Origin: Escherichia phage ECML-183-2
Strand: one strand, 5' to 3'
Sequence record: OL631481.1
DNA length: 64,000 nucleotides
Shown: in pieces, positions 42,229-42,300 of the stretch
Position numbering within the stretch: position 1 is the stretch's first letter
How the letters are laid out: each line of letters opens with the position of its first letter
Notes under the pieces: model-generated
Databases searched by the model: none
Seen by the model: only the letters and a program-made list of their open reading frames with translations
Told to the model about the DNA's origin: nothing
Made by a program: the position numbers and the translations under genes

Positions 42229-42300
42229 TGTATCCCGTGCTGGATTCGAACCAGCATCACAAAAATTGTGGATCTCTTATCCTGTAAGTCTAACGGGAAA
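42229..42300 (-). tRNA. tRNA-like element, degenerate (anticodon arm unresolved, no encoded CCA)
   Basis: Canonical T-arm GCTGG-TTCGAAT-CCAGC and 6-bp acceptor stem, but body about 4 nt short and no 5-bp anticodon stem found. Confidence 0.3.

Follow-up and report, generated by a model that had tools for sequence, protein, structure and literature searches.

A tRNA-like element with a three-nucleotide loop at the anticodon position in a Phapecoctavirus tRNA cluster, and its relatives in phages of Enterobacteriaceae

The window analysed here, a stretch of 64,000 nucleotides (nt) of Escherichia phage ECML-183-2 (OL631481.1), comes from a phAPEC8-like E. coli myovirus of the genus Phapecoctavirus, subfamily Stephanstirmvirinae. 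A cluster of transfer RNA (tRNA) genes occupies positions 42146–44132 on its minus strand. ARAGORN calls ten tRNAs there, to which Rfam adds a Tyr-like tRNA (43351–43435), a sub-threshold match to the tRNA-Sec model (43660–43746) and the subject of this report, a tRNA-like element bounded by tRNAs 2 nt and 6 nt away. The original prediction, made from the sequence alone, had taken this element either for a tRNA in decay or for a tRNA-like RNA serving some other role. Both alternatives survive the analysis; what does not stand is its framing as the decayed copy of an ordinary neighbour, since the element belongs to a distinct family that departs from the canonical tRNA in every lineage (the D arm is odd, the variable region has 2 nt and the arm at the anticodon position is not an anticodon arm), has undergone compensatory changes and occurs in at least eight phage lineages. 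We consider it moderately probable that the element is a real tRNA-shaped RNA gene unable to decode, and that it represents in Phapecoctavirus a small family of tRNA mimics which phages of Enterobacteriaceae have exchanged with one another.

Read 5' to 3', the element consists of U1 and UCCCGU, then UA, GACUUACAGGAUAAGAGAUC, CACAA-UUU-UUGUG, AU, GCUGG-UUCGAAU-CCAGC, ACGGGA with U, a single A, and CAUAAU (coordinates in Table 1). Direct reading bears out the description given in the original prediction. The T arm is perfect, and the acceptor stem has 6 base pairs (bp), UCCCGU (42293–42298) with ACGGGA (42233–42238), the seventh position being a U.U (42299/42232). The body is about 4 nt short, as 37 nt separate the 5' acceptor strand from the T stem versus 41–42 in ordinary tRNA. 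The variable region of ordinary tRNAs has 4 or more nt; here it has two. No anticodon stem of 5 bp with a 7-nt loop bearing U33 and a purine at 37 is present: the sole stable hairpin at that position, a 13-nt arm, has 5 bp and a loop of 3 nt, which is too short, and the element cannot present an anticodon. The stem is followed by A-CAU rather than N-CCA, unlike the canonical neighbours. Of the ten ARAGORN tRNAs, nine were read directly and have an encoded CCA, as does the Tyr-like gene at 43351–43435, also read directly; that of the tenth (44058–44132), whose 3' end lies beyond the sequence read, was deduced from the ARAGORN coordinates. To our knowledge, CCA is encoded in all tRNAs of E. coli. 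Only two of the four pairs of a canonical D stem (10–13 with 22–25) can form, and of five features of decoding tRNAs tested on the element the T arm alone is present, with 5 bp and a 7-nt loop of the GUUCRANYC type. The minimum free energy structure is nevertheless a cloverleaf-like fold (−19 kcal/mol, z = −2.3).

ARAGORN with default settings makes no call on the element. The Rfam tRNA model (RF00005) scores it at 28.8 bits against a gathering score of 29, with E = 8.6e-5 in a 78-nt stretch and 0.0044 in 4 kb, and no model yields a canonical cloverleaf with a clear anticodon. A canonical fold, 'Val-CAC', with a stem AGAGA/UUUUU and a loop UCCACAA, was drawn both by the Rfam alignment and by ARAGORN with relaxed settings. 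It was rejected, for it fails in REC, phAPEC8 and all other lineages; the stem is possible only through a 1-nt deletion private to the window, where the hairpin loop is UUU versus UUUA or CUUA. The near-threshold Rfam score is partly due to this accidental stem. Close relatives of the element have no Rfam tRNA match at E ≤ 0.1, and as far as the aligned sequences go a conserved canonical cloverleaf does not exist for it. The Rfam models for tmRNA and YrlA gave no match on the element, in which position 3:70 is C-G, unlike the G3.U70 of tmRNA, and whose ends adjoin tRNAs and not a large extra domain; the mascRNA model (RF01684) gave none at E ≤ 10.

The original prediction had suggested alignment with related phages. 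By blastn, the element was found in 75 phage records. About 70 of these are Phapecoctavirus, with 94–97.5% identity, none identical to the window, and the records listed carry no annotation of it. Four unclassified Vequintavirinae (A7_1, A73, UPEC06 and LTH01; hereafter the A7_1 group) match at approximately 80%. With the A7_1 group and later family members as blastn queries, six further groups were found: the Drexlerviridae phage phiEB49, where the member is annotated tRNA-Val; the Klebsiella N4-like phages of the KP8 group, where it is annotated tRNA-Leu; the Enterobacter phages SABI and SonariX; the E. coli N4-like Gamaleyavirus, where it is annotated 'tRNA-OTHER' and once tRNA-Thr; the Klebsiella Stephanstirmvirinae phage 05F01; and the Klebsiella Mydovirus NDO71. 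The family thus extends over at least eight phage lineages including Phapecoctavirus, and the hosts are all Enterobacteriaceae. Pattern scans of IMG/VR (three), JGI metagenomes and GTDB genomes, which demanded exact D-arm or T-arm patterns that divergent members may have escaped, returned no lineage beyond those found by blastn and, besides, ordinary tRNAs; Phapecoctavirus, phiEB49, KP8-like and SonariX-like phages were the lineages that recurred. In the records of WPEC1/2/4/6, ETEC-TG, UPEC06, NDO71 and K60PH164C1, protein genes ('hypothetical protein', 'RIIA lysis inhibitor') are annotated over the element or its tRNA neighbours, and these are probably spurious calls of open reading frames (ORFs).

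A covariance model of the family, R1, was built from 12 sequences. It scores family members at 62.8–93.1 bits, including 11 sequences outside its training set, and the element at 89 bits (42228–42299), the window sequence being in the training set. The best score on an ordinary tRNA was 55.9 bits in about 1.3 Mb of phage loci and 40.2 in the window. The element has the features that define R1, namely the UAG-R-CUUA..GG..UAAG D arm, the 2-nt variable region, the canonical T arm and the acceptor core CCCG/CGGG. On the generic Rfam tRNA model, by comparison, SonariX scores 33.3, the window 28.8 and phiEB49 24.6 bits (other members unreported) versus 50–72 for the neighbouring tRNAs, and no Rfam family except tRNA matches any member. 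A MAFFT alignment of the 12 sequences supports a four-arm fold with 96.6% of positions paired and 10 of 22 pairs changed on both sides; none of 500 column shuffles was as good, and slid controls gave 34–47% paired. Unguided RNAalifold recovered the acceptor, anticodon-position and T helices as well as the inner D hairpin. The alignment of 23 sequences has 97.0% of positions paired and compensatory changes at 12 of 22 pairs, although it was fitted to R1, so that the counts favour the model (11 of the 23 lay outside R1 training), and the family alignments span few independent lineages (eight).

Acceptor columns 2–7 are paired with 70–75 in all 23 sequences except for one A.C cell at 7:70, with compensatory changes at acceptor pairs 2, 3, 4, 6 and 7. 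The T arm is 100% paired across the family, with two compensatory pairs, and the D-arm pairs are 100% paired in both the 12- and the 23-sequence sets. The core shared by the family, which departs from that of tRNAs, begins with U8 A9, followed by G10 and R11, which pair with Y28 and C29 (11:28 is A-U in Phapecoctavirus and G-C in all other lineages), then by an inner stem CUU/AAG with GG in its loop and by a 3-nt bulge; the arm at the anticodon position follows without a spacer. We model the family D arm as two plus three pairs around this bulge. An alternative pairing of the D region, G18G19A20 with 27–29 (GGA with UCC), was weaker, being 91% versus 100% paired, and would occupy the GG of the elbow. 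In Gamaleyavirus two C's replace the 3-nt bulge and would allow an uninterrupted D stem of 5 bp, GGCUU/AAGCC, which favours the pairing of G10/G11 with CC over the GGA/UCC alternative. A 7-bp acceptor stem with N73-CCA is present in five of the eight lineages; the exceptions are Phapecoctavirus, the A7_1 group (CCAA, no discriminator) and, in Gamaleyavirus, one of four isolates, ST4 (CUCC).

Body identity between lineages is 71–85%, and that of the arm at the anticodon position 21–58%. The arm is 13 nt long in the window and 14 nt in the other Phapecoctavirus; it reaches 17 nt in the A7_1 group, 18 nt in phiEB49, KP8 and NDO71, and 19 nt in SonariX and 05F01, with loops of 3, 4, 5, 7, 4 and 9 nt across the lineages. 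The arm types include CACAA/UUGUG, AGCA-GGCA-UGUU, RACUUAAGA, UAAACCAA and UUAACAA. The podovirus KP8 and the myovirus NDO71 both have the arm AGCA-GGCA-UGUU, their outer stems differing by two compensatory changes; the loop RACUUAAGA is common to SonariX and 05F01, with one compensatory stem change. The stem CACAA/UUGUG is common to Phapecoctavirus and the A7_1 group but the loop on it varies freely, with UUU, UUUA, CUUA and CUA in the former and GUAUC, AUAUC and GUCUC in the latter. Between lineages the arm has been replaced wholesale, and it is not simply drifting. In SonariX-like phages and 05F01 (our loci L009, L029, L070 and L217) the loop RACUUAAGA holds the self-complementary hexamer CUUAAG, through which loop-loop dimerisation could occur; relaxed ARAGORN reads this arm as 'tRNA-Stop(tta)'.

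Could the element still be an odd but working elongator tRNA, repaired at its CCA, charged and reading codons? Its Rfam score lies only 0.2 bits under the cut-off, relaxed ARAGORN draws a 'tRNA-Val(cac)' on it, and phage T4 makes functional tRNAs from genes without CCA. The phiEB49 homologue, the only member with a U33 and A37 loop (UUAACAA, 7 nt), is called tRNA-Val by default ARAGORN. We regard this explanation as very improbable nonetheless. The AGAGA/UUUUU stem of the CAC fold is absent from every close relative, and the conserved hairpin leaves a loop of 3–4 nt in all nine Phapecoctavirus haplotypes. Isolates differ in the length and sequence of the loop, and A7_1 and UPEC06 have different bases at its centre but no change in the acceptor stem, a pattern incompatible with decoding. 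Annotators also disagree among Val, Leu, Thr and OTHER. The sequences point, in our view, to a family of tRNA mimics in enterobacterial phages, most members of which cannot decode. The literature searched holds no paper describing the element or the family, and no Phapecoctavirus transcriptome.

A separate question is whether the copy in the window is still constrained or is decaying. The reading covered 15 of about 70 Phapecoctavirus alleles. In nine haplotypes every one of the 42 paired bases keeps its pairing, and the single stem change (A34 to G) results in a G.U pair. In Phapecoctavirus and the A7_1 group together there are nine substitutions, none of which breaks a pair and two of which lead to G.U, with a chance probability of about p ~0.01. 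Two compensatory double changes, at A11-U28 and at the G-C atop the T stem, arose on the branch leading to Phapecoctavirus. The element of A7_1 is 79% identical to that of the window, whereas the shared tRNAs are 75% (Pro), 71% (Met), 64% (Gly), 62% (Tyr) and 60% (Gln) identical. That the element is better conserved than the genuine tRNAs shared with it, together with the compensatory changes in at least eight lineages, favours for the family the second of the two alternatives first offered, a tRNA-like RNA with another role.

The competing view is that the family is functional elsewhere and that the Phapecoctavirus gene is a drifting relic, now deprived of CCA, of the 1:72 pair and of part of the arm, which survives only because the genus is young. 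Several observations speak for it and weigh against continued constraint. Phapecoctavirus is the most reduced lineage, the only one with a mismatch at 1:72 and without an in-register CCA, and its arm is the shortest; either U or C stands at position 72 in the genus, unpaired with U1 throughout (U1.U72 or U1.C72), and the 3' end is polymorphic (ACAU, ACCU or ACCC). The loop differs in length between isolates, the T loop of isolate ESCO25 contains one additional A, and within the genus variable sites are denser in the element than in its flanks or anywhere else in the region. The test of absent stem-breaking substitutions restricted to the genus is weakly significant (p ~0.09). The sister genus Justusliebigvirus (phi92, PaulScherrer) has no family member, which indicates that the element is dispensable for such phages, and other degenerate tRNA-likes lie in the same cluster, raising the prior for decay. 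Against decay stand the intact pairs and compensatory changes described above and the fact that arm type and stem are common to the A7_1 group, so that the short arm is old and retained. The reduced state of the lineage leaves decay a plausible account of the window copy, though one that we rate as rather unlikely; we think it somewhat more likely that the copy is a still-constrained RNA.

As for an origin from a host tRNA, blastn against 5,426 E. coli genomes gave no match. The best canonical matches of the family model, among loci pre-selected on the D-arm pattern, are tRNA-Ile(GAU) (40–56 bits), a CAU tRNA, Lys(UUU), Val and Arg. The stem CACAA/UUGUG resembles the stem CACGA/UCGUG of the neighbouring tRNA-Ile.

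The 2.4 kb surrounding the element are 95–99% identical to dozens of Phapecoctavirus genomes. Within the cluster the element belongs to a sub-operon of the order Gly-Gln-Pro-Ile-[element]-CAU tRNA, between a promoter-like site, which likely starts the transcription unit holding the element, and a terminator-like hairpin, which likely ends it. The CCA of tRNA-Ile stops 2 nt (G, U) short of element position 1. Downstream of the cluster is the gene of the terminase large subunit, as found by Pfam on the neighbouring ORFs, among which no tRNA-handling enzyme adjoins the cluster.

Table 1. Positions of the element, its parts and the flanking features in the window
Feature	Coordinates	Strand	Basis or remark
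tRNA-like RNA gene, 69 nt, from U1 (42299) to the A at the discriminator position (42231)	42231–42299	−	Rfam tRNA model, 28.8 bits; minimum free energy cloverleaf
Acceptor stem, 5' strand: U1 (mismatched) and UCCCGU	42293–42299	−	direct reading
Noncanonical D arm: G10-C29, A11-U28, 3-nt bulge (AGA), stem CUU/AAG, loop with G18 G19	42271–42290	−	
Mini-hairpin at the anticodon-arm position: CACAA-UUU-UUGUG, 5 bp and 3-nt loop	42258–42270	−	direct reading; minimum free energy fold
Variable region, 2 nt (AU)	42256–42257	−	AU or AC in 23 of 23 family members
T arm: GCUGG-UUCGAAU-CCAGC, 5 bp and 7-nt loop, perfect	42239–42255	−	direct reading
Acceptor stem, 3' strand: ACGGGA and mismatched U72	42232–42238	−	direct reading
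3' trailer CAUAAU reaching the next tRNA, no in-register CCA	42225–42230	−	direct reading
tRNA-Ile (GAU), upstream neighbour	42302–42375	−	ARAGORN; Rfam, 72.2 bits
CAU-anticodon tRNA, downstream neighbour, called 'Met' or Pseudo-CAT	42146–42224	−	ARAGORN; Rfam, 50.1 bits
Promoter-like site TTGACA-18-TATAGT (11/12), 5' of tRNA-Gly	42785–42814	−	consensus scan only
Intrinsic-terminator-like hairpin and U tract	42012–42030	−	consensus scan; rho-independent terminator annotation in phage ASO2A

Several other genes of the cluster are irregular. The downstream CAU tRNA has an A1xC72 mismatch and a 5-bp D stem and is labelled fMet in some records and Pseudo-CAT in others; homologues of 78–97% identity are present in phages as diverse as phi92, FelixO1-like Erwinia and Salmonella phages, Caulobacter phiCbK, and Aeromonas and Vibrio phages. 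The Tyr-like gene scores 39 bits on the Rfam tRNA model, was missed by ARAGORN and is named tRNA-Tyr or Pseudo-GTA in relatives. The locus at 43660–43746, also missed by ARAGORN, is matched only by the tRNA-Sec model (37.4 bits, below the cut-off of 47) and bears the label tRNA-Ser-TGA in ASO2A. Between tRNA-Thr and tRNA-Asn, at 43169–43248 (minus strand), lies an unannotated tRNA-like remnant. Its acceptor stem, GGACUUG/CGAGUCC, has 7 bp, its T arm, GCAGG-UAUCGAAU-CCUGC, has a loop of 8 nt, and its middle is long and irregular; neither ARAGORN nor Rfam calls it, and family model R1 gives it 14.5 bits. A 57-nt insertion (42376–42438) separates tRNA-Pro from tRNA-Ile and carries the inverted repeat GTCAGAC...GTCTG; six related genomes are without it and have a 6-nt spacer instead.

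Outside the window, the cluster of Klebsiella phage KP8 (L008, at 1251–1325, 2115–2181 and 1655–1757) contains further odd tRNA-likes, including one with a 6-nt 'anticodon' loop (ARAGORN '???'), another annotated tRNA-OTHER and a weak permuted-tmRNA match (33 bits, cut-off 47). In Gamaleyavirus (loci L218–L220 and L222) a tRNA-Ile with an AAU anticodon (A34) is called by ARAGORN 6–9 nt 3' of the family member; such a tRNA-Ile is unusual in bacteria and their phages.

How would a tRNA-shaped RNA that does not decode be made and used? The element would be transcribed within the tRNA operon precursor and cut at its 5' end by RNase P, which would thereby release tRNA-Ile with a 2-nt tail. Since RNase P requires only the stack of acceptor and T arm and the elbow, a cut at this end is expected, and the U at −1 in four of the five lineages first found agrees with it. 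The 3' trailer would be trimmed by exonucleases, and the end could be rebuilt to CCA by the host CCA-adding enzyme; T4 tRNA genes without CCA mature into functional tRNAs by such trimming and CCA addition. The product would be a stable L-shaped RNA acting through its elbow and acceptor end and not through a codon.

The element may, on the other hand, be a pure RNase P cleavage signal, a spacer that helps to separate tRNA-Ile from the CAU tRNA and has no other role. The parts that are conserved (acceptor stem, T arm and elbow) are those that RNase P reads. At the junctions read (Phapecoctavirus, the A7_1 group, phiEB49, KP8 and SonariX) the element starts 1–14 nt past the CCA of another tRNA, and in four of the five lineages first found the base at −1 is U, which is the base preferred by E. 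coli RNase P. This explanation is nevertheless quite improbable. Any tRNA would do as such a signal, and the neighbouring tRNAs already supply RNase P sites; phiEB49 retains the element though only one other tRNA gene is present there; and the loops RACUUAAGA and GGCA and the core CCCG/CGGG are conserved between unrelated phages beyond a signal's need.

For the family of tRNA mimics that we favour, the elbow and the CCCG/CGGG core are kept beyond the need of pairing, CCA is present in most lineages and arm cassettes are common to unrelated phages, all of which suggests a protein partner that reads the tRNA body. An all-against-all BLASTP of the flanking ORFs for a co-transferred partner found only an 81-aa protein, common to the two N4-like groups; that no partner gene co-occurs with the element tells against the reading we favour. 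Enteric bacteria have many tRNA-cleaving defences, and phage tRNAs counter tRNA nucleases, resistance mapping to changes in the anticodon arm (PMC10264068, PMC11555353, PMC12445682). With these defences and counter-measures in mind, our tentative first guess, to which we give a low probability, is that the element is a decoy or competitor for a host factor binding tRNA bodies, for example a tRNA-cleaving defence nuclease. A second guess, slightly less probable, is that it serves the operon as a processing 'punctuation mark' by way of RNase P. More speculatively, and decidedly unlikely as a whole, the family may consist of decoys with a remodelled core and interchangeable arm cassettes, each adapted to bind or block a different defence enzyme that targets tRNA, or a different factor that handles it, and with the cassettes passing between unrelated Enterobacteriaceae phages as an RNA-only anti-defence module.

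Comparison with known systems places the element near several of them. Like other phage tRNAs (RF00005), it lies in a same-strand phage tRNA cluster and has a canonical T arm, the GG of the D loop, an acceptor stem and, in its relatives, CCA; unlike them, it lacks an anticodon loop, its variable region is only 2 nt long, and two additional pairs across a 3-nt bulge close its D arm. As in the nuclease-resistant phage tRNAs (PMC10264068, PMC12445682, PMC11555353), changes concentrate in the anticodon arm, but those tRNAs still decode and the element cannot. It shares with the eukaryotic mascRNA/MEN-beta (RF01684) a small tRNA-like cloverleaf and a reduced, non-decoding anticodon arm. The mascRNA is cut from a longer transcript by RNase P and RNase Z and then receives CCA, and by analogy the element may be processed in a like manner; mascRNA, however, has no sequence relationship to it, is nuclear and sets the 3' end of a long non-coding RNA. 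The TMER vtRNAs of murid herpesvirus 68 (MHV68) are likewise virus-encoded tRNA look-alikes, which are processed and given CCA but not aminoacylated. Unlike the element, which has no hairpin cargo, they belong to an animal virus and are RNA polymerase III promoter and processing modules for microRNAs. The element thus has a shape, and presumably a processing, like those of the tRNA-likes of mascRNA and MHV68, without being a member of either family.

In T4, 'species 1 and 2' (rnaC and rnaD) are stable non-tRNA RNAs that are co-transcribed and processed with the phage tRNAs; these are approximately 120–140 nt long and not cloverleaf-shaped, and we liken them to the element by description, not by sequence. 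The tRNA-Other of Bacillus cereus is a pseudo-tRNA that is non-functional in translation and has a cellular effect (PMC3399842). Like the element, it is a tRNA-like gene that does not work in translation, but it is chromosomal, has an anticodon arm of tRNA length and shows no sequence kinship with the element.

If the window copy is only a relic, its value is the lesser one of a dated example of the erosion of a tRNA-like gene. For the family the consequences would be wider. Its genes are missed or inconsistently labelled (Val, Leu, Thr, OTHER) in dozens of genomes of therapy-candidate phages, so that published tRNA counts and codon-usage arguments for those phages are off. The family core, with its 2-nt variable region and the 3-nt bulge of its D arm, bears on tRNA structure and on how RNase P and the CCA-adding enzyme recognise their substrates. 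That phage tRNA genes act as weapons against tRNA-cleaving immunity is now established, though only for tRNAs that serve as replacement decoders. A conserved phage RNA with the body of a tRNA but no anticodon would, if true, be a different use of the tRNA shape in phages, as a decoy, a competitor or a processing device.

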